Positions 181 to 12,607 of a stretch of DNA of 12,607 nt are shown here, piece after piece. The stretch lies in IMG/VR virus record IMGVR_UViG_2695420412_000012. The stretch is one strand, 5' to 3'. This stretch comes from a virus. Taxonomy: Duplodnaviria; Heunggongvirae; Uroviricota; Caudoviricetes. The position numbers and the translations under genes are program-made. The notes beneath the pieces are model-generated. The model ran no database searches. It was not told the origin of the DNA and saw only the letters and a list, made by a program, of their open reading frames with translations. Position 1 is the first letter of the stretch. The number at the start of each line of letters is the position of its first letter.

Positions 181-276
181 AAGAAATGAAAAAAGGCCAC
201 GCAGTTGCGCAGCCTGATAAACCCTGGTTAAAATCCACACGATAACAACACAACAATATCAGTATCTCATGCTATT

Positions 277-301
277 GCCCGAACCCATTCGGGCATTTTT
301 T
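277..301 (+). terminator. Rho-independent terminator (gcccgaa-ccca-ttcgggc followed by attttttacc)
   Basis: 7-bp GC-rich stem, 4-nt loop, then a T-run on the + strand. Confidence 0.55.
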
Positions 302-307
302 ACCCAT

Positions 308-338
308 AAAAAATGCCCCTCCGGAGAGGGGCATTTTT
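308..338. terminator. Bidirectional rho-independent terminator (A-run, atgcccctc-cgga-gaggggcat, T-run)
   Basis: Perfect 9-bp stem flanked by an A-run upstream and a T-run downstream, so it can terminate either strand. It would end the leftward (minus) late/accessory transcript. Confidence 0.65.
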
Positions 339-535
339 GCATGCACATTCTTTTTCTTGCATGGTGCCGGGTGCCTCCCGGTGAATTCAGTATCAGCACC
401 TGAATCCGCGATTATCACATATACCTACTTGCTGATTGCCCCTCCGCACAGGGGGATTCACCATGCAGTAGTATTTTTAATAAACAGCAAATAAAAAAAT
501 CAAGCATTATGCAGGCTGTTTCTTTTTATCACCGG

Positions 536-1263: not shown

Positions 1264-2085
1264 CTATCTGGTCACCTTTTTCAGTTGTTGTTCTGCCCAT
1301 GCTTCTTCAATATCAAACTGCACCACCAGCGTATCGTAAAAACGTTTAACTGTTTTTTTCCATGTATCAAGAGATATGGCATCGGTTACATTACATATGG
1401 CATTAAATGCCTCCGTTGAAGGTAATCTTTCATAGCCACGACCACCACAACGCTGGCAGTCTCTGATAACAGGCATACCACGTTTTACCGACTCTTCACG
1501 ATGAATGGCAACACCGCGCCCACGACAATCTTTACAGGCGGTGGAAACCTCCCCCTTCCCTCCACACTCCGGACAGGCAACTTTTACCACCTCCCTGACT
1601 TTTTTCCATTCCTCCCAGTAAGACGGATACACGCCTTTTGTGCACTTTGCCCACACTGGCGGCTTACCATCCGGATACTGGATCTTGTTTGTAAAAACCT
1701 CGCTTTCAATAAATTTTTTTCCGTGACAACAGGGGCACTGTTTTTTGCTCGCCGCGCTACGGGCATAATCTTCAAACGCATACGAAGCCATAATACGCAT
1801 CACTGCCGGTTTTATTTCTGCCGGGAGTTTTCTTAACGCCGCCACGCGATCACACCGACTGAGTGCATATTCTGTCAGCAATTCTGTTGCCCGCTCTCTG
1901 TCATTCATACTAATGCCCATTTTCCCAAGGAACGCAGAAAACCCCATCTCAGCCCAATTCTGTGTCATGCCCTGCGCGGCCATCACATCAGTGATACTCA
2001 GCGTATCTTTCGACGTTGAGGCCGATGCATCAGTCAGGCCGAGGGATTTTGGGGAGTAGTATTTCGGTAAATCTTCCAGTTTCAT
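1264..2085 (-). CDS. Q: Late-gene antiterminator Q (lambda Q family, 273 aa, with multiple CxxC zinc-binding pairs)
   Basis: ATG at 2083-2085. N-terminus ...YSPKS...TDVMAAQGM... and C-terminus ...LPSTEAFNAI...VKRFYDTLVVQ parallel lambda Q. Cys pairs CPCCHG, CPECGG, CKDCRG, CQRCGG. Followed by the pR'-like promoter. Confidence 0.9.
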   Translation of the reverse strand: MKLEDLPKYYSPKSLGLTDASASTSKDTLSITDVMAAQGMTQNWAEMGFSAFLGKMGISMNDRERATELLTEYALSRCDRVAALRKLPAEIKPAVMRIMASYAFEDYARSAASKKQCPCCHGKKFIESEVFTNKIQYPDGKPPVWAKCTKGVYPSYWEEWKKVREVVKVACPECGGKGEVSTACKDCRGRGVAIHREESVKRGMPVIRDCQRCGGRGYERLPSTEAFNAICNVTDAISLDTWKKTVKRFYDTLVVQFDIEEAWAEQQLKKVTR

Positions 2086-2456
2086 TTTTTGACCTGCCCT
2101 TCAAGCATTATGGGGTAAATCTTCCCCCCCAGACGTCCACCAGATACTGGCTGACCACGAACGATATTGATTTCATCAAACTGCTCATCGTCCATTAACA
2201 CTCCCGCATGCGTCAGCGCATCCAGCGGTGCTTTCAGGATATTGTCCAGGTCGCGACGACGCTTATCCGGTGGCTCCACAATAATCCTGATCGCCAGCCT
2301 TCCGGACAGATTTAATTTCAGTCGCTGCTGGCGAACAATAAGCGCCACATCACGGCGATAACGCTCACCGGCTTTTGATACAAAATATGTGCTGCCACGA
2401 CGTCGCCAGTAGGTGTTCACCGTCGGCGGGTAAGGCAAAACAAACTCTATACGCAT
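2082..2456 (-). CDS. rusA: RusA Holliday-junction resolvase (124 aa)
   Basis: ATG at 2454-2456. Motif [15 protein letters not shown] ... [30 protein letters not shown] is typical of the RusA family. Its stop overlaps the Q start (ATGA). Confidence 0.9.
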   Translation of the reverse strand: MRIEFVLPYPPTVNTYWRRRGSTYFVSKAGERYRRDVALIVRQQRLKLNLSGRLAIRIIVEPPDKRRRDLDNILKAPLDALTHAGVLMDDEQFDEINIVRGQPVSGGRLGGKIYPIMLEGQVKK

Positions 2457-2468
2457 CAGTAACCCCTT

Positions 2469-3500
2469 TTACCCAAGCACGCCGGTTGCAAAGGCGTGAT
2501 CAAGAAAACGAAAAATTAAATCAACCTGAGAACCATGCTTTTCTTCGAACGCCAGCGGATCCGCATGAAGCTCGTTGTGATGCTCCCGACACAGCGGTAG
2601 CGTGAAAATATCGTGGGATTTTGTTCCCATTCCGCCCTGACCATGACCAATCAGGTGATGGGGATCGTCGGCTGGCTTACTACAACACGCACACGGCTGT
2701 GTCTTCACCCAGCGTGTGTATTTCTCGTTAACCCAGCGGCGACGTTTAGGTCGTTTCATGAAAGATTCCGGAGACTCAGGATCAACGGCAATGCTGACCA
2801 CCGTCTTTTCCTGTGGTGGGTTCTGTTGCTGGTGGGCGTGAGGCAGCGGCGCAAGATTTTTTGTGCGCTGTTTCAGTATGCTGGTGGCGGTCTGCTCTCC
2901 CGGTACGATGTCGCTTTCACGGTACATTGAGCGGATTTTTTCTGCACGCAACCCCAGCGAACGACGTAATACCGCTTCCGGTAGCGCGTCCGCCACCTGA
3001 TTGCGGACCGCCCACCAGGATAATTCAGCCAAAGATAATTCACGCTCCTGCGTACCGCTTATTGCGTGACCAGGCGGCTTACCATCCGGATACTGGATCT
3101 TGTTTGTAAAAACCTCGCTTTCAATAAATTTTTTTCCGTGACAACAGGGGCACTGTTTTTTGCTCGCCGCGCTACGGGCATAATCTTCAAACGCATACGA
3201 AGCCATAATACGCATCACTGCCGGTTTTATTTCTGCCGGGAGTTTTCTTAACGCCGCCACGCGATCACACCGACTGAGTGCATATTCTGTCAGCAATTCT
3301 GTTGCCCGCTCTCTGTCATTCATACTAATGCCCATTTTCCCAAGGAACGCAGAAAACCCCATCTCAGCCCAATTCTGTGTCATGCCCTGCGCGGCCATCA
3401 CATCAGTGATACTCAGCGTATCTTTCGACGTTGAGGCCGATGCATCAGTCAGGCCGAGGGATTTTGGGGAGTAGTATTTCGGTAAATCTTCCAGTTTCAT
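2469..3500 (-). CDS. Chimeric in-frame ORF: Q N-terminal 143 codons fused to the C-terminal ~200 codons of the YdfU-like protein
   Basis: 3072-3500 matches the 5' part of Q at 1657-2085; 2469-3071 matches the 3' part of the 349-aa gene at 6204-6806. The breakpoint is at 3071/3072 (gtgacc|aggcggcttacc). The 343-aa ORF reads through it. Confidence 0.7.
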   Translation of the reverse strand: MKLEDLPKYYSPKSLGLTDASASTSKDTLSITDVMAAQGMTQNWAEMGFSAFLGKMGISMNDRERATELLTEYALSRCDRVAALRKLPAEIKPAVMRIMASYAFEDYARSAASKKQCPCCHGKKFIESEVFTNKIQYPDGKPPGHAISGTQERELSLAELSWWAVRNQVADALPEAVLRRSLGLRAEKIRSMYRESDIVPGEQTATSILKQRTKNLAPLPHAHQQQNPPQEKTVVSIAVDPESPESFMKRPKRRRWVNEKYTRWVKTQPCACCSKPADDPHHLIGHGQGGMGTKSHDIFTLPLCREHHNELHADPLAFEEKHGSQVDLIFRFLDHAFATGVLG

Positions 3501-3871
3501 TTTTTGACCTGCCCTTCAAGCATTATGGGGTAAATCTTCCCCCCCAGACGTCCACCAGATACTGGCTGACCACGAACGATATTGATTTCATCAAACTGCT
3601 CATCGTCCATTAACACTCCCGCATGCGTCAGCGCATCCAGCGGTGCTTTCAGGATATTGTCCAGGTCGCGACGACGCTTATCCGGTGGCTCTGCAATCAC
3701 CTTTATCGCCAGCCTTCCGGACAGGATTAATTTCAGCCGCTGCTGGCGAACAATAAGCGCCACAGCCCGGCGATAACGCTTTCCCTCCTCCGAGATAAAA
3801 TATGTGCTGCCACGACGTCGCCAGTAGGTGTTCACCGTTGGCGGGTAAGGTAAAACCAAATCTATGAGCAT
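3497..3871 (-). CDS. rusA: RusA resolvase, divergent copy (124 aa, MLIDLVLPYPP...)
   Basis: ATG at 3869-3871. Same family motifs as the other two copies but with several substitutions (N-terminus, IKVIAEPP, KRYRRAVALIV). Confidence 0.9.
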   Translation of the reverse strand: MLIDLVLPYPPTVNTYWRRRGSTYFISEEGKRYRRAVALIVRQQRLKLILSGRLAIKVIAEPPDKRRRDLDNILKAPLDALTHAGVLMDDEQFDEINIVRGQPVSGGRLGGKIYPIMLEGQVKK

Positions 3872-3883
3872 CAGTCACCTCTT

Positions 3884-4933
3884 TTACCCAAGCACGCCAG
3901 TTGCAAAGGCGTGATCAAGAAAACGAAAAATTAAATCAACCTGAGAGCCATGCTTTTCTTCGAACGCCAGCGGATCCGCATGAAGCTCGTTGTGATGCTC
4001 CCGACACAGCGGTAGCGTGAAAATATCGTGAGATTTTGTCCCCATTCCGCCCTGACCATGACCAATCAGGTGATGGGGATCGTCGGCTGGCTTACCACAA
4101 CACGCACACGGCTGAGTCTTCACCCAGCGTGTGTATTTCTCGTTAACCCAGCGGCGACGTTTAGGTCGTTTCATGAAAGATTCCGGAGACTCAGGATCAA
4201 CGGCAATGCTGACCACCGTCTTTTCCTGTGGTGGGTTCTGTTGCTGGTGGGCGTGAGGCAACGGTGCAAGATTTTTTGTGCGCTGTTTCAATATGCTGGT
4301 GGCGGTCTGCTCTCCCGGTACGATGTCGCTTTCGCGGTACACCGAGCAGATTTTTTCCGCTGGTAATCCCAGCGAGCGACGTAATACCGCTTCCGGTAGC
4401 GCGTCCGCCAGCTGATTGCGGACCGCCCACCAGGATAATTCAGCCAGAGATAATTCACGCTCCTGCGTACCGCTTATTGCGTGACCGATGACGTCAATCA
4501 TCCATGCTGACAGGTTTTGATGAGCAAGTTGCTCGAGTGATTCGGATGTCTGGTCACGCAGCTGGTTGTCGCAGTGCCAGCACAACACCATTGCGCCGGT
4601 ACCATATCGGTGAATAACGGTTTCGCTGTGATGATAATCGCCGTGTGGCCACTGGCAGGATTTAATATGGCGCAACAGCCAGTCAGACAATGCACCAGCA
4701 CCACCAGCAGCACGAATTACCCGTGCGTTACTGAAAAACGGCAGCAATGTTTTGTCTTCCACCAGCGGCTGGCGAACGGCAGGAACGACCCCGGACGGCA
4801 GATTACGCATGCTTTTCGGTTCCGGCTCCACCAGTAACCGGGTATTGTGGAATACCGGCATGGATTCACGGCCCGGCTTAACGATCACCAGCCCGAGTTC
4901 CGGTACCAGAACAGGTCGAAGTAATACCCGCAC
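3884..4933 (-). CDS. YdfU-like 349-aa protein with two Cys/His clusters (DUF968-type, putative HNH-like nuclease), divergent copy
   Basis: GTG at 4931-4933 with GGAGG 4 nt upstream. Cys/His clusters CQWPHGDYHH...CWHCDN and CACC...HHLIGHGQGG...CREHHNELH. Length and position (between a small gene and rusA/Q) match Qin prophage YdfU as I recall it. Confidence 0.8.
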   Translation of the reverse strand: MRVLLRPVLVPELGLVIVKPGRESMPVFHNTRLLVEPEPKSMRNLPSGVVPAVRQPLVEDKTLLPFFSNARVIRAAGGAGALSDWLLRHIKSCQWPHGDYHHSETVIHRYGTGAMVLCWHCDNQLRDQTSESLEQLAHQNLSAWMIDVIGHAISGTQERELSLAELSWWAVRNQLADALPEAVLRRSLGLPAEKICSVYRESDIVPGEQTATSILKQRTKNLAPLPHAHQQQNPPQEKTVVSIAVDPESPESFMKRPKRRRWVNEKYTRWVKTQPCACCGKPADDPHHLIGHGQGGMGTKSHDIFTLPLCREHHNELHADPLAFEEKHGSQVDLIFRFLDHAFATGVLG

Positions 4934-4934
4934 G

Positions 4935-5213
4935 TTACCTCCAGATGCGTTGCTGGAATGTGCGGGACGGACGCGGTGGGCGTTCGGAGTAAGGAAGCCT
5001 GACGGAGATTATCCAGTGACGGTAGTCGAGGCTAAGGGCTTTTTTAACCTCGTATCCGCGCCTGCGGTAACACTGAATTATCCATTCAGCCTGCTCTTCA
5101 GTGCATGGTGGATGCTGGAACCAGTCCGATTTGAATGCATGAAAACGCCGTCCGCACCTGCTGGCAAAGACGGCAGAATCATCAGAATTGTGTAATTTGG
5201 TATCGTGCGCCAT
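4935..5213 (-). CDS. Small protein (92 aa, MAHDTKLHNSDD...) in the position of Qin rem
   Basis: ATG at 5211-5213. Its stop abuts the GTG of the 349-aa gene. Second copy at 7255-7527. The longer 129-aa track ORF is an upstream extension without support. Confidence 0.55.
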   Translation of the reverse strand: MAHDTKLHNSDDSAVFASRCGRRFHAFKSDWFQHPPCTEEQAEWIIQCYRRRGYEVKKALSLDYRHWIISVRLPYSERPPRPSRTFQQRIWR

Positions 5214-5399
5214 CGGTTGTCTCTTCTGGCGCAGCAGGTGCCAGTTGTTCAGGCTGGCGTATAAAGTATAAATAAACTGGTTCCAGTGTAAAGCCCCTAC
5301 ATTAATGGAATAAAAGTCAAACAACAGATTGCTGGGATAAACACAACGCTTATTATTAAAAGCGATTAGATAAATTAAATTTTAATGTTATGCAATTTT

Positions 5400-5570
5400 A
5401 GGTAATGACTCCAACTTATTGATAGTGTTTTATGTTCAGATAATGCCCGATGACTTTGTCATGCAGCTCCACCGATTTTGAGAACGACAGCGACTTCCGT
5501 CCCAGCCGTGCCAGGTGCTGCCTCAGATTCAGGTTATGCCGCTCAATTCGCTGCGTATATCGCTTGCTGA
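5400..5570 (-). mobile_element. insB: IS1 remnant: right terminal inverted repeat plus the 3' end of insB, 171 bp
   Basis: ggtaatgactccaacttattgatagtg... is the IS1 terminal IR. The encoded tail ...[47 protein letters not shown] is the InsB C-terminus. IS1 identity stops at 5570, where Q sequence begins. Confidence 0.9.
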
Positions 5571-5820
5571 ACGCCGCCACACGATCGCACCGACTGAGTG
5601 CATAATCTGCCAGTAATTCTGTTGCCCGCGCCCTGTCATTCATACTGATGCCCATTTTCCCCAGGAACGCAGAAAACCCCATCTCAGCCCGATTCTGTGT
5701 CATGCCCTGCGCGGCCATCACATCAGTGATACTCAGCGCATCTTTTGACGTTGAGGCCGATGCATCGGTCAGGCAAGGGGATTTTGGGGAGTAGTATTTC
5801 GGTAAATCTTCCAGTTTCAT
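5416..5820 (-). pseudogene. Truncated Q (first ~83 codons, divergent allele) fused in frame to the insB 3' end
   Basis: 134-aa ORF: [30 protein letters not shown]...SRCDRVAA then IS1-derived [14 protein letters not shown].... Junction at 5570/5571. Confidence 0.85.
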
Positions 5821-6191
5821 TTTTTGACCTGCTCTTCATGCATTATGGGGTAAATCTTCACCCCCAGACGTCCACCAGATACTGGCTGACCACGAACGAT
5901 ATTGATTTCATCAAACTGCTCATCGTCCATTAACACTCCCGCATGCGTCAGCGCATCCAGCGGTGCTTTCAGGATATTGTCCAGGTCGCGACGACGCTTA
6001 TCCGGTGGCTCCACAATAATCCTGATCGCCAGCCTTCCGGACAGATTTAATTTCAGTCGCTGCTGGCGAACAATAAGCGCCACATCACGGCGATAACGCT
6101 CACCGGCTTTTGATACAAAATATGTGCTGCCACGACGTCGCCAGTAGGTGTTCACCGTCGGCGGGTAAGGCAAAACAAACTCTATACGCAT
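5817..6191 (-). CDS. rusA: RusA resolvase (124 aa)
   Basis: Almost identical to 2082-2456 except at the 3' end ([15 protein letters not shown]), where the overlapping Q allele differs. Confidence 0.9.
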
Positions 6192-6203
6192 CAGTAACCC
6201 CTT

Positions 6204-7253
6204 TTACCCAAGCACGCCGGTTGCAAAGGCGTGATCAAGAAAACGAAAAATTAAATCAACCTGAGAACCATGCTTTTCTTCGAACGCCAGCGGATCCGCA
6301 TGAAGCTCGTTGTGATGCTCCCGACACAGCGGTAGCGTGAAAATATCGTGGGATTTTGTTCCCATTCCGCCCTGACCATGACCAATCAGGTGATGGGGAT
6401 CGTCGGCTGGCTTACTACAACACGCACACGGCTGTGTCTTCACCCAGCGTGTGTATTTCTCGTTAACCCAGCGGCGACGTTTAGGTCGTTTCATGAAAGA
6501 TTCCGGAGACTCAGGATCAACGGCAATGCTGACCACCGTCTTTTCCTGTGGTGGGTTCTGTTGCTGGTGGGCGTGAGGCAGCGGCGCAAGATTTTTTGTG
6601 CGCTGTTTCAGTATGCTGGTGGCGGTCTGCTCTCCCGGTACGATGTCGCTTTCACGGTACATTGAGCGGATTTTTTCTGCACGCAACCCCAGCGAACGAC
6701 GTAATACCGCTTCCGGTAGCGCGTCCGCCACCTGATTGCGGACCGCCCACCAGGATAATTCAGCCAAAGATAATTCACGCTCCTGCGTACCGCTTATTGC
6801 GTGACCGATGACGTCAATCATCCATGCTGACAAGTTTTGGTGAGCAAGTTGCTCAAGTGATTCTGAGGTCTGGTCACGCAACTGGTTGTCGCAGTGCCAG
6901 CACAACACCATTGCGCCGGTACCATAACGGTGAATGACGGTTTCACTGTGGTGATAATCACCGTGTGGCCACTGGCAGGATTTAATATGGCGCAACAGCC
7001 AGTCAGACAGTGCACCAGCGCCGCCAGCAGCACGAATCACACGCTCATTGCTGAAAAATGGCAGTAATGATTTATCCTCCGCCAGCGGCTGGCGAACGGC
7101 AGGGACGACTCCGGATGGCAGGCCGCACATGCTTTTCGGTTCCGGCTCCACCAGCACTCGAGGATTATGAAATATCTGTATGGATTCACGGCCCGGCTTA
7201 AGGACCACCAGCCCAAGCTCAGGCACCAGAACAGGTCTAAGTAATACCCGCAC
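6204..7253 (-). CDS. YdfU-like 349-aa Cys/His-rich protein (DUF968-type, putative HNH-like nuclease)
   Basis: Full-length copy. Its 3' 600 bp is identical to 2469-3071. Confidence 0.8.
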   Translation of the reverse strand: MRVLLRPVLVPELGLVVLKPGRESIQIFHNPRVLVEPEPKSMCGLPSGVVPAVRQPLAEDKSLLPFFSNERVIRAAGGAGALSDWLLRHIKSCQWPHGDYHHSETVIHRYGTGAMVLCWHCDNQLRDQTSESLEQLAHQNLSAWMIDVIGHAISGTQERELSLAELSWWAVRNQVADALPEAVLRRSLGLRAEKIRSMYRESDIVPGEQTATSILKQRTKNLAPLPHAHQQQNPPQEKTVVSIAVDPESPESFMKRPKRRRWVNEKYTRWVKTQPCACCSKPADDPHHLIGHGQGGMGTKSHDIFTLPLCREHHNELHADPLAFEEKHGSQVDLIFRFLDHAFATGVLG

Positions 7254-7597: not shown

Positions 7598-7626
7598 GGA
7601 AAAAACAAAACCCGCCGAAGCGGGTT
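7598..7626 (-). terminator. Rho-independent terminator downstream of hok (aacccgc-cgaa-gcgggtt then T-rich tract on the minus strand)
   Basis: Perfect 7-bp stem at 7609-7626. The + strand A-rich run at 7598-7610 becomes the T-run for minus transcripts. Confidence 0.65.
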
Positions 7627-7694: not shown

Positions 7695-7850
7695 TTACTC
7701 CTCAGGTTCGTAAGCTGTGAAGACAGCGACCTCCGTCTGGCCGGTTCGGATTCGTACCTCGCAGAGGTCTTTCCTCGTTACCAGTGCCGTCACTATGACG
7801 GTTAAACAGATGACGATCAGGGCGATTAACATCGCCTTTTGCTGCTTCAT
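7695..7850 (-). CDS. hok: Hok-family membrane toxin (51 aa, HokD/RelF-like)
   Basis: MKQQKAMLIALIVICLTVIVTALVTRKDLCEVRIRTGQTEVAVFTAYEPEE shows the Hok signature (TM helix, TRKxLCE, EVAxFxAYE). AAGGAG lies 9 nt upstream. An in-frame upstream ATG at 7905-7907 would give a 70-codon mok-like extension. Confidence 0.9.
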   Translation of the reverse strand: MKQQKAMLIALIVICLTVIVTALVTRKDLCEVRIRTGQTEVAVFTAYEPEE

Positions 7851-8109
7851 AGCCTGCTTCTCCTTGCCTTTCGGCACGTAAGAGGCTAACCTAGATTTGC
7901 CGTTCATAGATTGAGCCTCAGATTAATGTTAAGCGTCTTGCAGGACGCGTAATGTTAACTGGGGCTTTTCTCTATCTGCCTTTTGGTGTTCATGCCTGAG
8001 ACAGATAGCCTCAAGCACCCGCAGTCATTCTACTTAACTAAGATTTCCCCGCAAACCGTTTTTGTCCGGCACAGTAAATATCCAACTAAACCAATGGCGT
8101 TCGCTGTAT

Positions 8110-9631: not shown

Positions 9632-10054
9632 TCACAGTACCGCCTCCTGAAAATTACCCTGATAGAAAGCCAGTACACGCTGCATAGCTTCACTCTTCCG
9701 GCACTCGCGACAGATTATGTTTAGGCGACTGTCGTAGCGACGTATTTCTCCGTCAGGTAACGACCAGATAAGGTCCGGATCAACCACAACCGGTTTCTTC
9801 AGCTTTGCCCTCGATAATTTTTTGCGGGCATTTTGCCAGTCTTTACGAGCCTGTTCAGACGGGAATAACCCGTAGCCAGAATTGTATACATCGCCACTGG
9901 CAACCAGCTCTCTGGCCAGAACGCTCATCAGATATCTTGTTACCCCAGTTTTAGTTTCCAGTTGTCGTAACGTCTCGCGCCCACTCTGGCGTACGAGTTC
10001 AACAACCTGTCCTTTAATTTTTTCCCGCTCTTCTTGTGTAAAAACTTTTGCCAC
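9632..10054 (-). CDS. Hypothetical 140-aa protein, possibly HTH-containing
   Basis: GTG at 10052-10054 with AGGAGG 4 nt upstream. Protein-like composition; possible HTH around TLRQLETKTGVTRYLMSVLAREL. Confidence 0.6.
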   Translation of the reverse strand: MAKVFTQEEREKIKGQVVELVRQSGRETLRQLETKTGVTRYLMSVLARELVASGDVYNSGYGLFPSEQARKDWQNARKKLSRAKLKKPVVVDPDLIWSLPDGEIRRYDSRLNIICRECRKSEAMQRVLAFYQGNFQEAVL

Positions 10055-10094: not shown

Positions 10095-11165
10095 TTACCC
10101 CCTGAAGCCCGGCGGAATTTCGTTATCCGGTTCAGAAATATGATTCACACAACGCTGGTTGTTCGTGCCGCTTACCGGGAGCAACCAGGGGTTCTCAAAA
10201 TTCCGGTCCGGTCCAAAAAACGTCGTCGCTCGCTGAACAAATTCCGTTCCCGTTTTCCCGGTAGCCGCCAAGTATCTTGCGTAACGCCTCACGCCATCCA
10301 GCATGGCCTCTGGTGGCACCCCCTCGCGTAATCTGGCCTTCCATGCACTGAAAGCGGATTTCTTCGGGTTTGCTCCGGCACGCAACGGGTACTCCCGCCA
10401 GACCTGTTCGAACACATCCGGATAATCCACTCGTCCCACAGACAGCCCGGTGTTTTCCGGGACTACCCGATCGGCTTCCCGCTGAATGGCGGAATCGGCT
10501 TCGGGCTGCTGCAGTTGGTGTGATTGCTCCAGCCTTGCGGTCATCACCTGCTGCACAGCGCCCGAATCGGCTTTCAGCGCATACGCTGAATCGGCTTCCG
10601 GTGTCGTGCCTGCTGGCTGACCAGGATTGACGGTCTGAACATCCCCTGCCTGGTTCGTGGCGTTTTTTACGCCATGGACCATAGTGTTTTGATCTTCTTG
10701 ATCTGTATCTTTATCTGTATCTTTATCTGTCGTGACTCGTCGTGACATGTGCGTGACATTTCGTGACGCGCCGTGACAATCGCCATTTTGTTCCCGCTTT
10801 CTTTCCCTCTCTCGCTGCGCCCTCTTGCGCTCTGCAGGAGATTTTGCGGTTTGCGAAATATTGCCGTTGTCCTCTTTAAGCACCTGGCGTTTTTCCCATC
10901 CAGTGATTAAATCACCATCAAGTACCCGCCCCTGCATCGTCTGCAAAATTGAATCAATTACCTCTTCTGTCACGTCGAGCGCACTTGCCAAATCTTCTGT
11001 CGTGACATCAATGTGACCTCGCGTGACATTTCGTGACGCGCTCACCAGGAGGTGGATATACACTGCCATCACTGTTGCAATTGGCTGCCCTGACACCCTG
11101 GCAATTGTTCGCCACTTAGGGTCATTTGGCATGTCATGCCATAATCTGAGCCAGGCGTTAGCCAT
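10095..11165 (-). CDS. Replication initiation / replisome-organizer protein (lambda O / Rac YdaU-like, about 356 aa) containing the origin iterons
   Basis: ATG at 11163-11165 with GAGGTGA upstream. N-terminus NAWLRLWHDMPNDPKWRTIAR... resembles replisome-organizer N-domains. Two iteron clusters lie inside the gene, as ori lies inside lambda O. Confidence 0.75.
   Translation of the reverse strand: MANAWLRLWHDMPNDPKWRTIARVSGQPIATVMAVYIHLLVSASRNVTRGHIDVTTEDLASALDVTEEVIDSILQTMQGRVLDGDLITGWEKRQVLKEDNGNISQTAKSPAERKRAQRERERKREQNGDCHGASRNVTHMSRRVTTDKDTDKDTDQEDQNTMVHGVKNATNQAGDVQTVNPGQPAGTTPEADSAYALKADSGAVQQVMTARLEQSHQLQQPEADSAIQREADRVVPENTGLSVGRVDYPDVFEQVWREYPLRAGANPKKSAFSAWKARLREGVPPEAMLDGVRRYARYLAATGKTGTEFVQRATTFFGPDRNFENPWLLPVSGTNNQRCVNHISEPDNEIPPGFRG
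10701..10777. repeat. Iteron cluster 1: 12-bp tandem repeat (atctgtatcttt, 2.5 copies) then five CGTGAC motifs spaced about 10 bp apart
   Basis: CGTGAC at about 10732, 10741, 10752, 10762 and 10772. The repeats translate as ...RRVTTDKDTDKDTDQ... in the linker of the replication protein. Confidence 0.65.
10999..11040. repeat. Iteron cluster 2: four (C/T)GTGAC motifs spaced about 10 bp apart
   Basis: cgtgac / tgtgac / cgtgac / cgtgac. The 21-mer gcgtgacatttcgtgacgcgc is shared exactly with cluster 1. Confidence 0.6.
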
Positions 11166-11236: not shown

Positions 11237-11662
11237 TCAATGTACTGCCACAGCATTTCCTGCCGGGCCACCACGGTTCATCTGATTGAAACCGGCGATT
11301 GCCACTGCGACAAAATCATCAGCGTCTCTCACCAGTCGCTCCCGCGTCTCCACCAGCTCCCGAAAATAAGCTGAACTGTGGCTGCGCATTCTGGCCACCA
11401 GCAAAGGTGGCATTGCCTTTTCGATCGCTGGTAACAACGCCTGAATTTTTTCAACTGCATCAGGGGTGTCTTTCTCTACCCAGCGGAAAATTTTCTGGGT
11501 ATTGCGAGCCAGGGCTTCCGGATGGCTGTCGTCATACAGTTCTGGGAACGTCATACCCAGTTCAAAATAAGCCCTGGTTATTTCAGCTGCCGGAACTTTT
11601 TCACCGTCCGGATGCGCCCAGGCATTCATCGCCATGCGGATGTGTTCATGCTTGATTTTCAT
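11237..11662 (-). CDS. YdaT-like 141-aa protein (Rac-type early gene)
   Basis: ATG at 11660-11662 with AGGAG 8 nt upstream. Overlaps the Cro-like gene by 17 nt. Same size and position as Rac YdaT, directly after the Cro-like gene. Confidence 0.65.
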   Translation of the reverse strand: MKIKHEHIRMAMNAWAHPDGEKVPAAEITRAYFELGMTFPELYDDSHPEALARNTQKIFRWVEKDTPDAVEKIQALLPAIEKAMPPLLVARMRSHSSAYFRELVETRERLVRDADDFVAVAIAGFNQMNRGGPAGNAVAVH

Positions 11663-11927
11663 GAATCAAGCTCCTAGAAAGTGGTTGTGTTAACGTTTTG
11701 GTATCTTCCAGCTCGGGCCAAATATTCATCCAATCAAAAGGCCTTAGTTGCTGACGTGTAACTTCACCATTACTGGCTCGCTCAATAAGGACGCATAACG
11801 ATGCCCCTAACACTTGACCTTTACTCAATGCCTTTCTTAGATAACCGATGCTGGTACCACACTCGCATGCAAACATACGCTGTTCATCTGACGAAAGAGA
11901 ATTGAGAAATATTCTTAATTCTTCCAT
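11646..11927 (-). CDS. Cro/YdaS-like HTH regulator (93 aa)
   Basis: ATG at 11925-11927 with AAGGAG 5 nt upstream. HTH-like segment CGTSIGYLRKALSKGQ. Divergent from the repressor gene across the operator region. Confidence 0.7.
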   Translation of the reverse strand: MEELRIFLNSLSSDEQRMFACECGTSIGYLRKALSKGQVLGASLCVLIERASNGEVTRQQLRPFDWMNIWPELEDTKTLTQPLSRSLIHENQA

Positions 11928-11954: not shown

Positions 11955-11991
11955 AATACCCACAGGTAAACAAAAGTCAATACCCACAGGT
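11955..11991. promoter_or_regulatory. Operator-like direct repeats (aatacccacaggt twice, centres 24 bp apart) in the divergent repressor/cro intergenic region
   Basis: Exact 13-mers at 11955-11967 and 11979-11991. An inverted repeat aggtaaacaa / ttgtttacct flanks the second copy. Confidence 0.6.
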
Positions 11992-12027: not shown

Positions 12028-12447
12028 ATGGACAAATATGAATTTAGACGACAGCAACTCATCAAAATTCGTGATGAGAAATGCGATGGTAAAGCGGTTA
12101 ACGTGGCCAGAAAGATCGGGCGCGAGCCTTCTTATGTATCAAGAATGTTGTACCCAGAGGGGAAAAAGGGAAAAAAACGGATCGCTGATGATATGGTGGA
12201 GATTATCGAAGAGTCCTTTGGGTTACCCCGGGGATGGATGGATGGTATCGTTTCATCATCAACGAACACAGCCTCCAGTTATGAAACAAGGGTTCTAACG
12301 CCACGACAACGTATTTTTTTAGATCTCTTAGACGAACTGCCAGAAAGTGAAGCGGATAACTTATTAAAAACTCTTGAAGAGAAAAAACAGTATTACAATA
12401 TGATCTACGAAGAAATCCGTAAAAAGAAAGCACAAAACGCATCATAG
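12028..12447 (+). CDS. Prophage repressor-like HTH protein (139 aa, RacR/CI-position)
   Basis: ATG at 12028. HTH-like segment KAVNVARKIGREPSYVSRML. It is the only clear + strand gene and is divergent from the cro-like gene. No obvious S24 peptidase motifs. Confidence 0.7.
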   Translation: MDKYEFRRQQLIKIRDEKCDGKAVNVARKIGREPSYVSRMLYPEGKKGKKRIADDMVEIIEESFGLPRGWMDGIVSSSTNTASSYETRVLTPRQRIFLDLLDELPESEADNLLKTLEEKKQYYNMIYEEIRKKKAQNAS

Positions 12448-12483: not shown

Positions 12484-12520
12484 AAAAGTTACCCATGGGT
12501 ATTTACTTTTTAAATACCTA
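12484..12520. promoter_or_regulatory. Second pair of operator-like sites (acccatgggtat and acctatgggtat, 25 bp apart) downstream of the repressor gene
   Basis: Palindromic acccatgggt at 12484-12495 and a near-copy at 12509-12520. Both are related to the reverse complement of the 11955 motif (acctgtgggtat). Confidence 0.5.
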
Positions 12521-12607
12521 TGGGTATCCTTCTTTTCATACCAACCCACCCCGCCCCACAGAATGCAGGGCAATACTTCGAGTTACCAGGCAGTGGTCAG
12601 GGGTTAA

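Follow-up and report, generated by a model that had tools for sequence, protein, structure and literature searches.

Where does a prophage begin to copy its DNA, and can the starting point be written into the very gene that encodes its replication initiator? The question is raised by a stretch of viral DNA of 12,607 nucleotides (nt; IMG/VR virus record IMGVR_UViG_2695420412_000012, Caudoviricetes), below called the window, in which the early region of a lambdoid Escherichia coli prophage carries a gene for a 356-residue replication initiator (Table 1). NCBI names the gene “phage replisome organizer,” its product matches phrog_3729, “replication initiation protein,” in PHROGs (E 2e-256), and a GAGGTGA ribosome-binding site stands ahead of the ATG at 11165. 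Two clusters of a short repeated core, together with a 12-base-pair (bp) tandem repeat, lie entirely within this gene. We consider it probable that they are parts of a two-part replication origin placed within the initiator's coding sequence, which would bring together initiator binding, duplex opening, an accessory block and helicase recruitment; the case for initiator binding, looping, unwinding and origin activity is built by analogy with lambda (PMC7466680) and SPP1 (PMC6316719).

Two phased arrays in one coding sequence

On the gene strand the repeated core reads GTCACG, and on the opposite strand, whose numbering we follow, CGTGAC. The promoter-distal array, cluster 1, holds five direct copies, which start at 10731, 10741, 10752, 10762 and 10772 and thus succeed one another in steps of 10, 11, 10 and 10 bp. 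The promoter-proximal array, cluster 2, ~230 bp away, holds four direct copies: three are exact (CGTGAC starting at 11001, 11022 and 11032), while the third on the gene strand, GTCACA, is degenerate (TGTGAC, with the core GTGAC, at 11012-11017). A single inverted copy follows 26 bp past the last of these. The clusters also share a 21-mer, GCGTGACATTTCGTGACGCGC, which spans two iterons, recurs at an offset of 270 bp, and is the only repeated 21-mer in the window past position 7600; next to cluster 1, at 10696-10730, the 12-bp unit TCTTTATCTGTA is repeated in tandem (2.9 copies, 95% matches by Tandem Repeats Finder, TRF). In gene order, codons 43-55 carry cluster 2 and codons 65-66 the inverted copy; after ~190 bp of ordinary coding sequence come cluster 1 (codons 130-145), an AT-rich repeat (codons 146-160) and an inverted repeat. 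A first-pass annotation of the window had described much of this: two CGTGAC clusters within the initiator gene (here 10731-10777 and, with the inverted copy, 10969-11037), the first made up of a 12-bp tandem repeat plus five sites at helical-turn spacing, the second of “four more” sites, and an identical 21-mer shared between them ~270 bp apart. All of this is borne out, the count of four being right if the degenerate (11012) or the inverted (10969) copy is included.

The crowding of the core is far from random. Seventeen CGTGAC sites occur in the whole window, against 5.6 ± 2.5 in 200 shuffles (maximum 13), and nine of the 17 are concentrated in 307 bp; both within the window and within 27 kb of a near-identical prophage, only the two clusters have three or more GTGAC/GTCAC sites per 45 bp. 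Some E. coli alleles (P0003, P0022 and L004) have a cluster 2 that is longer by 21 bp, i.e., by seven codons and two extra iterons.

But is the repeat a property of the DNA or of the protein? The arrays might be a by-product of protein-level repeats, or of replication slippage in permissive loops and linkers, with no function at the DNA level: both fall in length-variable segments of low predicted structural confidence, and the shared 21-mer is read in the same frame in the two clusters, so that it encodes the same ASRNVT peptide. The reading frames of the cores, however, do not follow a peptide. GTCAC occupies codon phases 0, 2, 0, 2 and 1 in cluster 1 and 0, 1, 0 and 2 in cluster 2, and across 40 homologous genes core starts divide 103/94/71 among the three phases; because neither a 10-bp nor an 11-bp step is divisible by three and all phases are used, the core encodes different residues each time. 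Codon choice favors the motif as well: when the protein is held fixed and codons are drawn from the prophage's own codon pool, the first 480 nt contain 1.66 ± 1.15 GTCAC, with a maximum of six in 5000 trials, whereas nine are observed.

The synonymous positions are more telling still. From 60 loci with homologues of the N-terminal domain (N-domain), gathered from alpha-, beta- and gammaproteobacteria, we compared conserved four-fold-degenerate codons in 24 GTCACG-type genes from many genera. Outside the repeats the third bases are essentially random (mean top-base fraction 0.46), while inside they are almost fixed (0.89; Mann-Whitney p = 9e-6): in cluster 2 the synonymous sites do not vary among 23/23 homologues (GTC, ACG and GGT, 23/23 each), and in cluster 1 TCA and GTC are kept in 24/24 each, all in genera in which synonymous sites elsewhere have reached saturation. 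Outside the direct repeats, full fixation is seen at a single synonymous site, the Val65 codon: of the GTCACG-type homologues that retain Val, 20/20 have GTG; since this GTG forms the inverted GTGAC, the inverted copy is a conserved DNA element, too. Two conserved peptides, NVTRGH.DVT and NATERGRTQ, turn out to be translations of three or four phased cores, and would owe their conservation to the protein-binding array in the underlying DNA. The protein is not without a voice: an Arg-Gly pair (R49 and G50) is kept in nearly all members, so that the DNA repeats overlie a short protein constraint. Such dual coding is unsurprising in principle, but the family offers a clear and family-wide example of it. 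The repeats are a DNA signal, not a protein repeat; codon phases, synonymous resampling and fixed synonymous sites largely refute a peptide-repeat origin, to which we give next to no credence.

One core type per gene across the family

If the cores are read as DNA, which protein reads them? The initiator itself is the obvious candidate, and its relatives are numerous. The gene is matched in 2,699 of 5,426 complete E. coli genomes (about half), a search with the N-domain finds 2,252 cluster representatives at E ≤ 0.001, and six isolated phages carry an initiator gene that is 97.8-99.4% identical. One of them, Tritos, has both clusters as in the prophage, in a gene 98.5% identical, and forms plaques on E. 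coli K-12 (PMC9928086); a plaque-forming phage with nearly the same gene and the same clusters argues that the module is functional in a live phage.

Among 48 homologous genes, 37 have some hexamer at least twice in both cluster regions and 27 at least three times in both; control region pairs give two and zero, respectively. Successive cores lie 10 bp apart in 126 cases and 11 bp apart in 29, cluster 2 sits at the same gene position (nt ~129-166) in most homologues, and the distal cluster falls at nt ~355-450 family-wide. A protein-only check points the same way: of 122 further representatives, 47 share a word of at least four residues between the two regions, and none of the controls does. 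The split into two clusters, which the first-pass annotation regarded as an oddity, is therefore conserved family-wide, in alpha-, beta- and gammaproteobacteria alike.

The core itself changes. At least three types occur: GTCACG in Escherichia, Pseudomonas, Bordetella, Aquitalea, Acidovorax and others; GTAACG in Pantoea, Enterobacter, Marinobacter and Sphingomonas; and CGAACGC in Variovorax, Janthinobacterium, Collimonas, Methylibium and others. Within each gene, one core type is always found in both clusters, as expected if a single co-inherited protein reads both. Residues encoded by the repeats aside, only residue 117, in a basic helix (residues 110-126; window ~10815-10817), tracks the iteron type: it is Q in GTCACG genes, Y or F in GTAACG genes and W in CGAACGC genes, with one exception (L026). 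Residue 117 is thus a possible specificity determinant, in a pattern confounded by phylogeny. In two genes, from a Serratia metagenome-assembled genome (L044) and a Pantoea sp. (L056), a repeated word CTACGTA at gene nt ~326-359 replaces the usual distal cluster, and an insertion directly after the N-domain carries the motif YVYYV...GIS.NPWAR; judged by eye, this insertion looks like a GIY-YIG nuclease.

What would the reader look like? An AlphaFold2 model, built from a 31-sequence alignment and with a mean predicted local distance difference test score (pLDDT) of 59.8, divides the initiator into an N-terminal DNA-binding domain (residues ~1-126), a disordered linker (~128-243) and a C-terminal domain (~245-356, confident at ~250-330); N-domain helices are predicted at 2-11, 16-25, 29-49, 56-63, 67-79 and 110-126. 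Residues 46-52, encoded by cluster 2, lie where a helix ends inside the N-domain, in a stretch modelled with low confidence, whereas cluster 1 lies at the junction between N-domain and linker and, together with the AT-rich repeat, in the predicted disordered linker; both segments tolerate insertions and deletions. The idea that the clusters bracket a protein domain thus holds for the second half of the N-domain, though not for the domain as a whole.

A different reader is conceivable: the repeats might bind a host factor or another phage protein, e.g., the DUF977 helix-turn-helix protein or the CII-like protein, instead of the initiator, and the weak structure model, which shows no recognition surface, leaves room for it. 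We nonetheless find this very improbable. The repeats accompany the N-domain across alpha- to gammaproteobacterial hosts and beside varied neighbors, and a shared host factor would not explain why related Enterobacterales prophages differ in their core (GTCACG vs. GTAACG). Nor does the most familiar host initiator offer itself: the window contains no DnaA box, i.e., no match to TTATCCACA with up to one mismatch. The neighbors are indeed a moving cast. Here, the genes downstream of the initiator encode the DUF977 protein and small proteins of unknown function (Pfam and PHROGs scans); in relatives with 46-51% identity (L065-L068) a DnaC-like (IstB_IS21) loader gene follows directly after the initiator; and in Pseudomonas phage phi1 a large neighboring gene is annotated “replication protein P.” That the neighbors change while the repeats keep to the N-domain suggests that it is the initiator which binds them. 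The phi1 initiator gene (KT887557; L063, 4001-4891) also has GTCAC clusters and an inverted copy; GenBank annotates no coding sequence there.

A proposed two-part origin and its setting

Binding sites alone do not make an origin; the duplex has to open. The first-pass annotation proposed to look for an AT-rich unwinding element beside cluster 2, yet the tract adjoins cluster 1 instead: GC content is lowest in the gene at 10680-10739 (0.30-0.35), where there is also a strong AT skew. This purine-biased repeat, which encodes the TDKDTDKDTDQEDQN linker, is a candidate DNA unwinding element. Hexamer repeats resembling (A/T)CAGATAAAGATAAAGA stand directly past the distal cluster in nearly all of 40 homologues, whatever their iteron type, and in the 60 nt past that cluster A+T makes up 62% (45% in the genes) and purines make up 67% of the coding strand. 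Here, too, the reading frame is not what is kept: the hexamers are translated as D-K-D-K, as Q-I-R-E-D-K, and in a frame in which GATTAGATAAG would otherwise include a stop codon. E. coli alleles differ in how many GATAAA/GATACA units they have; to this copy number alone speaks a scan of IMG/VR, whose 80 loci kept (L069-L148) are all near-identical E. coli copies.

Just past the AT-rich tract, the inverted repeat may be a third origin element. It belongs to a block of ~40 nt (AAACAC..TGGTNCATGGCG-AAAAA-CGCCA..GAACC) that has hardly changed among four homologues of the closest subfamily (46-51% protein identity), while its flanks diverge, and the sole variable codon of this block sits in the loop. 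Promoter and terminator scans of the region return chance-level counts, the “terminator-like” match being the inverted repeat itself. Other subfamilies have different inverted repeats or C-rich tracts at this position, with one apparent compensatory change (CCTACC/GGTAGG in L005 vs. CCCACC/GGTGGG in L021).

How might these parts work together? In the model that we favor, the N-terminal domain of the replisome organizer would bind the GTCACG cores and, because the 10-11 bp spacing places them on the same side of the helix, oligomerize along each array. The duplex would then open at a core origin formed by the distal array (10731-10777), with its proposed core-origin iterons, and the adjoining GATAAA/GATACA tract (10687-10730). 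The proximal array and the inverted copy (10969-11037), ~230 bp off, would act as an accessory binding block that strengthens or shapes the complex, probably joining the same nucleoprotein structure through DNA looping or wrapping. Finally, the C-terminal domain would recruit the host DnaB/DnaC helicase system. We infer this last step from the gene content: Pfam and PHROGs scans of the neighbors find no adjacent helicase, loader or P-like partner gene in the prophage module, which therefore probably depends on host DnaB/DnaC. The first-pass suggestion that the iterons mark the likely origin gains computational support from phasing, codon bias, invariant synonymous sites, matched cores and the AT-rich tract.

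Must initiator-binding sites be an origin at all? One or both clusters could instead be regulatory, serving autoregulation, a transcription roadblock or “handcuffing” copy control, with the origin wholly or partly elsewhere. In iteron plasmids such as P1, a second iteron array is purely regulatory; cluster 2 is missing in some lineages; and origin activity is deduced here by analogy. Against this, the AT-rich repeat tract and the inverted repeat adjoin cluster 1 in the classical order of an origin, and no further cluster of the motif is present in the window or in the 27 kb of the near-identical prophage, nor is there one in a promoter region. We judge a regulatory role improbable for the region as a whole, and less so for cluster 2 taken by itself.

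Several observations weigh against an origin bound by the initiator's N-domain at two arrays. Cluster 2 is not universal: the proximal region of four homologues (L029, L032, L039 and L043) is without obvious repeats. Because the homologues are phylogenetically related, the counts above overstate the number of independent observations, and no helical phase is convincingly preferred in the distance between the clusters when relatedness is taken into account (Rayleigh R of 0.44 at a 10.0-bp period and 0.25 at 10.5 bp, from non-independent sequences). The N-domain matches replisome organizer families below threshold: PF09681 at 16.4 bits (cut-off 23.3; E 0.0096; model positions 1-119 of 121), with sub-threshold matches also in 7 of 21 relatives (best E 9.8e-4), and TIGR01714 over its full length at 15.4 bits (cut-off 49.8). 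A fold search with the AlphaFold2 model, whose confidence is low as given above, finds nothing in the PDB at E < 1 beyond vague helix-turn-helix proteins, and a search of open-access texts found no description of this family's origin. One of the exceptions is itself informative, however: L039 lacks proximal repeats yet has kept three distal GTCAC copies spaced 10 bp apart, and a distal cluster retained without the proximal one makes cluster 1 look like the core and cluster 2 like an accessory.

A more demanding arrangement, in which the origin is bipartite, looped and dual-coded within the sequence for the initiator's DNA-binding domain, both arrays are needed and are bridged by initiator oligomers over ~230 bp, and the GATAAA hexamers, beyond melting easily, serve as a periodic single-strand binding track, seems to us doubtful. 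After opening, the initiator would capture this track, akin to DnaA on DnaA-trios or to DnaT filaments; such a track would explain why the hexamers are conserved whatever the iteron type and in more than one frame. Were this looped arrangement true, the GTCACG, GTAACG and CGAACGC classes would be replication-specificity (incompatibility) groups of proteobacterial prophages.

The favored two-part model has practical corollaries of its own: two phased arrays of a 6-7 bp core followed by GATAAA repeats make a sequence rule by which origins of prophages of this family could be located, and the core types sort these prophages into at least three specificity classes.

The surroundings of the initiator gene are those of an immunity and early region, with CI-, Cro/YdaS- and CII/YdaT-like genes (Table 1). 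Between the repressor and cro genes, ATACCCACAGGT is present in two copies spaced 24 bp apart (window 11956-11991), and immediately downstream of the repressor gene (12489-12527) are two palindromic relatives, ACCCATGGGT and ACCTATGGGT; all of these are probably operator sites of the immunity system. On the far side of the window, three tandem copies of a DUF968 gene (343-349 residues) and a RusA gene (124 residues) occupy 1264-7253, with start-to-start distances of 1415 and 2320 bp and 93-100% identity between copies. Two chimeric open reading frames accompany them: one joins an antiterminator Q fragment to DUF968 (2469-3500), the other a Q fragment to an IS1 transposase fragment (5416-5820). 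A near-identical prophage in strain HCM-27C-1 has a single DUF968/RusA copy; the triplication could be a local amplification, a rearrangement or an assembly artefact. The position of the sok antitoxin RNA match corresponds to the hokD toxin gene of the near-identical prophage.

Table 1. Positions of the features discussed, in window coordinates.
Feature	Position	Strand	Basis or remark
Replication initiator gene, 356 residues	10095-11165	-	Open reading frame and translation
Inverted repeat	10651-10681	.	13-nt arms (85% complementary), 5-nt loop
AT-rich hexamer/12-mer repeat, purine-strand-biased	10687-10730	-	TRF, GC minimum, AT skew; gene strand ACAGATAAAGATACAGATAAAGATACAGATCAAGAAGATCAAAAC
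Iteron cluster 1, promoter-distal	10731-10777	-	Five direct GTCACG, 10/10/11/10 bp in gene direction
21-mer spanning two iterons	10751-10771	.	Identical to 11021-11041 in cluster 2
Inverted iteron-core copy	10969-10974	+	GTCACG
Iteron cluster 2, promoter-proximal	11001-11037	-	Four direct GTCAC(G), 10/10/11 bp on the gene strand
DUF977 gene	9632-10054	-	Next after the initiator gene
CII/YdaT-like gene	11237-11662	-	Followed by the initiator gene
Cro/YdaS-like gene	11646-11927	-	
CI-like repressor gene	12028-12447	+	
AgvB	240-301	+	Rfam, above gathering score
STnc100	302-492	-	Rfam, above gathering score
sok antitoxin RNA	7845-8020	-	Rfam, above gathering score

Comparison with known origins

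Which of the characterized origins does the proposed one resemble? The lambda-type class, in which we include the Shiga toxin (Stx) phages and the P22 gene 18 type, offers the first comparison, one that was already drawn at first pass as a match to the lambda ori within O. In lambda ori, a palindrome lies beyond the AT-rich tract. The likeness in layout stands, in that origin-like repeats and an AT-rich tract lie inside an initiator gene: the lambda origin is inside its initiator's own gene, and here, too, repeated sites, putative binding sites, are part of the coding sequence. Even the position is nearly the same, with lambda iterons at nt 349-433 of the O gene and cluster 1 at nt 389-435. 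The AT-rich tract is promoter-distal of the iterons in lambda (PMC7466680), as it is here, directly past cluster 1. Lambda repeats encode part of an inter-domain linker and vary in number, from four in lambda to six in Stx phages (PMC7466680), and both traits recur in this family, in which repeat number varies between relatives.

The resemblance ends with the proteins and with the fine structure of the arrays. The initiator has no detectable homology to O, and membership of the lambda O family is rejected: a Pfam scan of the full protein gives no match at E ≤ 0.01, and the N-domain profile, compared with lambda O by hhalign, yields a probability of 0.09%. The module also has no P-like partner gene. 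Unlike the lambda iterons, which are ~18-19 bp long (annotated as 18 bp), spaced 20-24 bp and gathered in one contiguous array, the repeats here have a 6-bp core, a spacing of 10-11 bp, and two arrays ~230 bp apart plus an inverted copy.

A second parallel is Bacillus phage SPP1, whose oriL lies inside gene 38, the gene for the replisome organizer G38P, and combines direct repeats with an AT-rich unwinding element (PMC6316719); here, likewise, an organizer gene holds direct repeats along with an AT-rich candidate unwinding element. The resemblance of the N-domain to that of the G38P type is weak, resting on the full-length, sub-threshold matches to PF09681 and TIGR01714 given above. SPP1 has a second copy of its origin, oriR, elsewhere in the genome (PMC6316719), whereas the second cluster here is in the same gene; and SPP1 supplies a loader and a helicase itself, gp39 and gp40 (PMC6316719), while the prophage has neither.

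The C-terminus of the initiator leads to yet another system, replication restart. Its last ~24 residues (..EPDNEIPPGFRG, window 10095-10170) resemble the C-terminus of DnaT: NCBIfam NF002770 aligns with the last 24 residues (E 6.5e-4; 19.4 bits, cut-off 201), and so does PDB entry 6aep (E 0.003), this tail being the only part matched in sequence and profile searches of solved structures, which gave no match to the N-domain. A Pfam scan gives no match of the initiator to PF17948, described by NCBI as a “DnaT-like ssDNA-binding domain” (ssDNA, single-stranded DNA); mosaic relatives that share the N-domain do carry it. The C-terminal domain of DnaT forms filaments on single-stranded DNA in replication restart (PMC13377028). 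The DnaT-like tail may, by inference from this similarity, act in single-strand binding or in helicase recruitment.

What of the division into two blocks? Two-part origins with separated iteron blocks are found in phage P4 (ori/crr) and in plasmids P1 (incC/incA) and R6K, where two clusters of one initiator-binding repeat are thought to interact through the bound initiator. The blocks of P4, P1 and R6K are placed outside the initiator gene or around it, at distances of hundreds to thousands of bp, their repeats measure 8-22 bp, and the proteins are unrelated. Iteron-plasmid origins differ from this locus in two further respects: they have accompanying DnaA boxes, which the window lacks, and gene and repeats serve as the sole replicon of a plasmid, which is not so here, as in a plasmid collection no small replicon uses an N-domain gene and the only 11 records that carry one are either large records or phage-sized circles. 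What sets this putative origin apart, as read from its sequence, is a combination of features: short cores spaced at one helical turn, two arrays with an inverted copy, an array within the part of the gene that encodes the DNA-binding domain, and a conserved AT-rich tract of hexamers.

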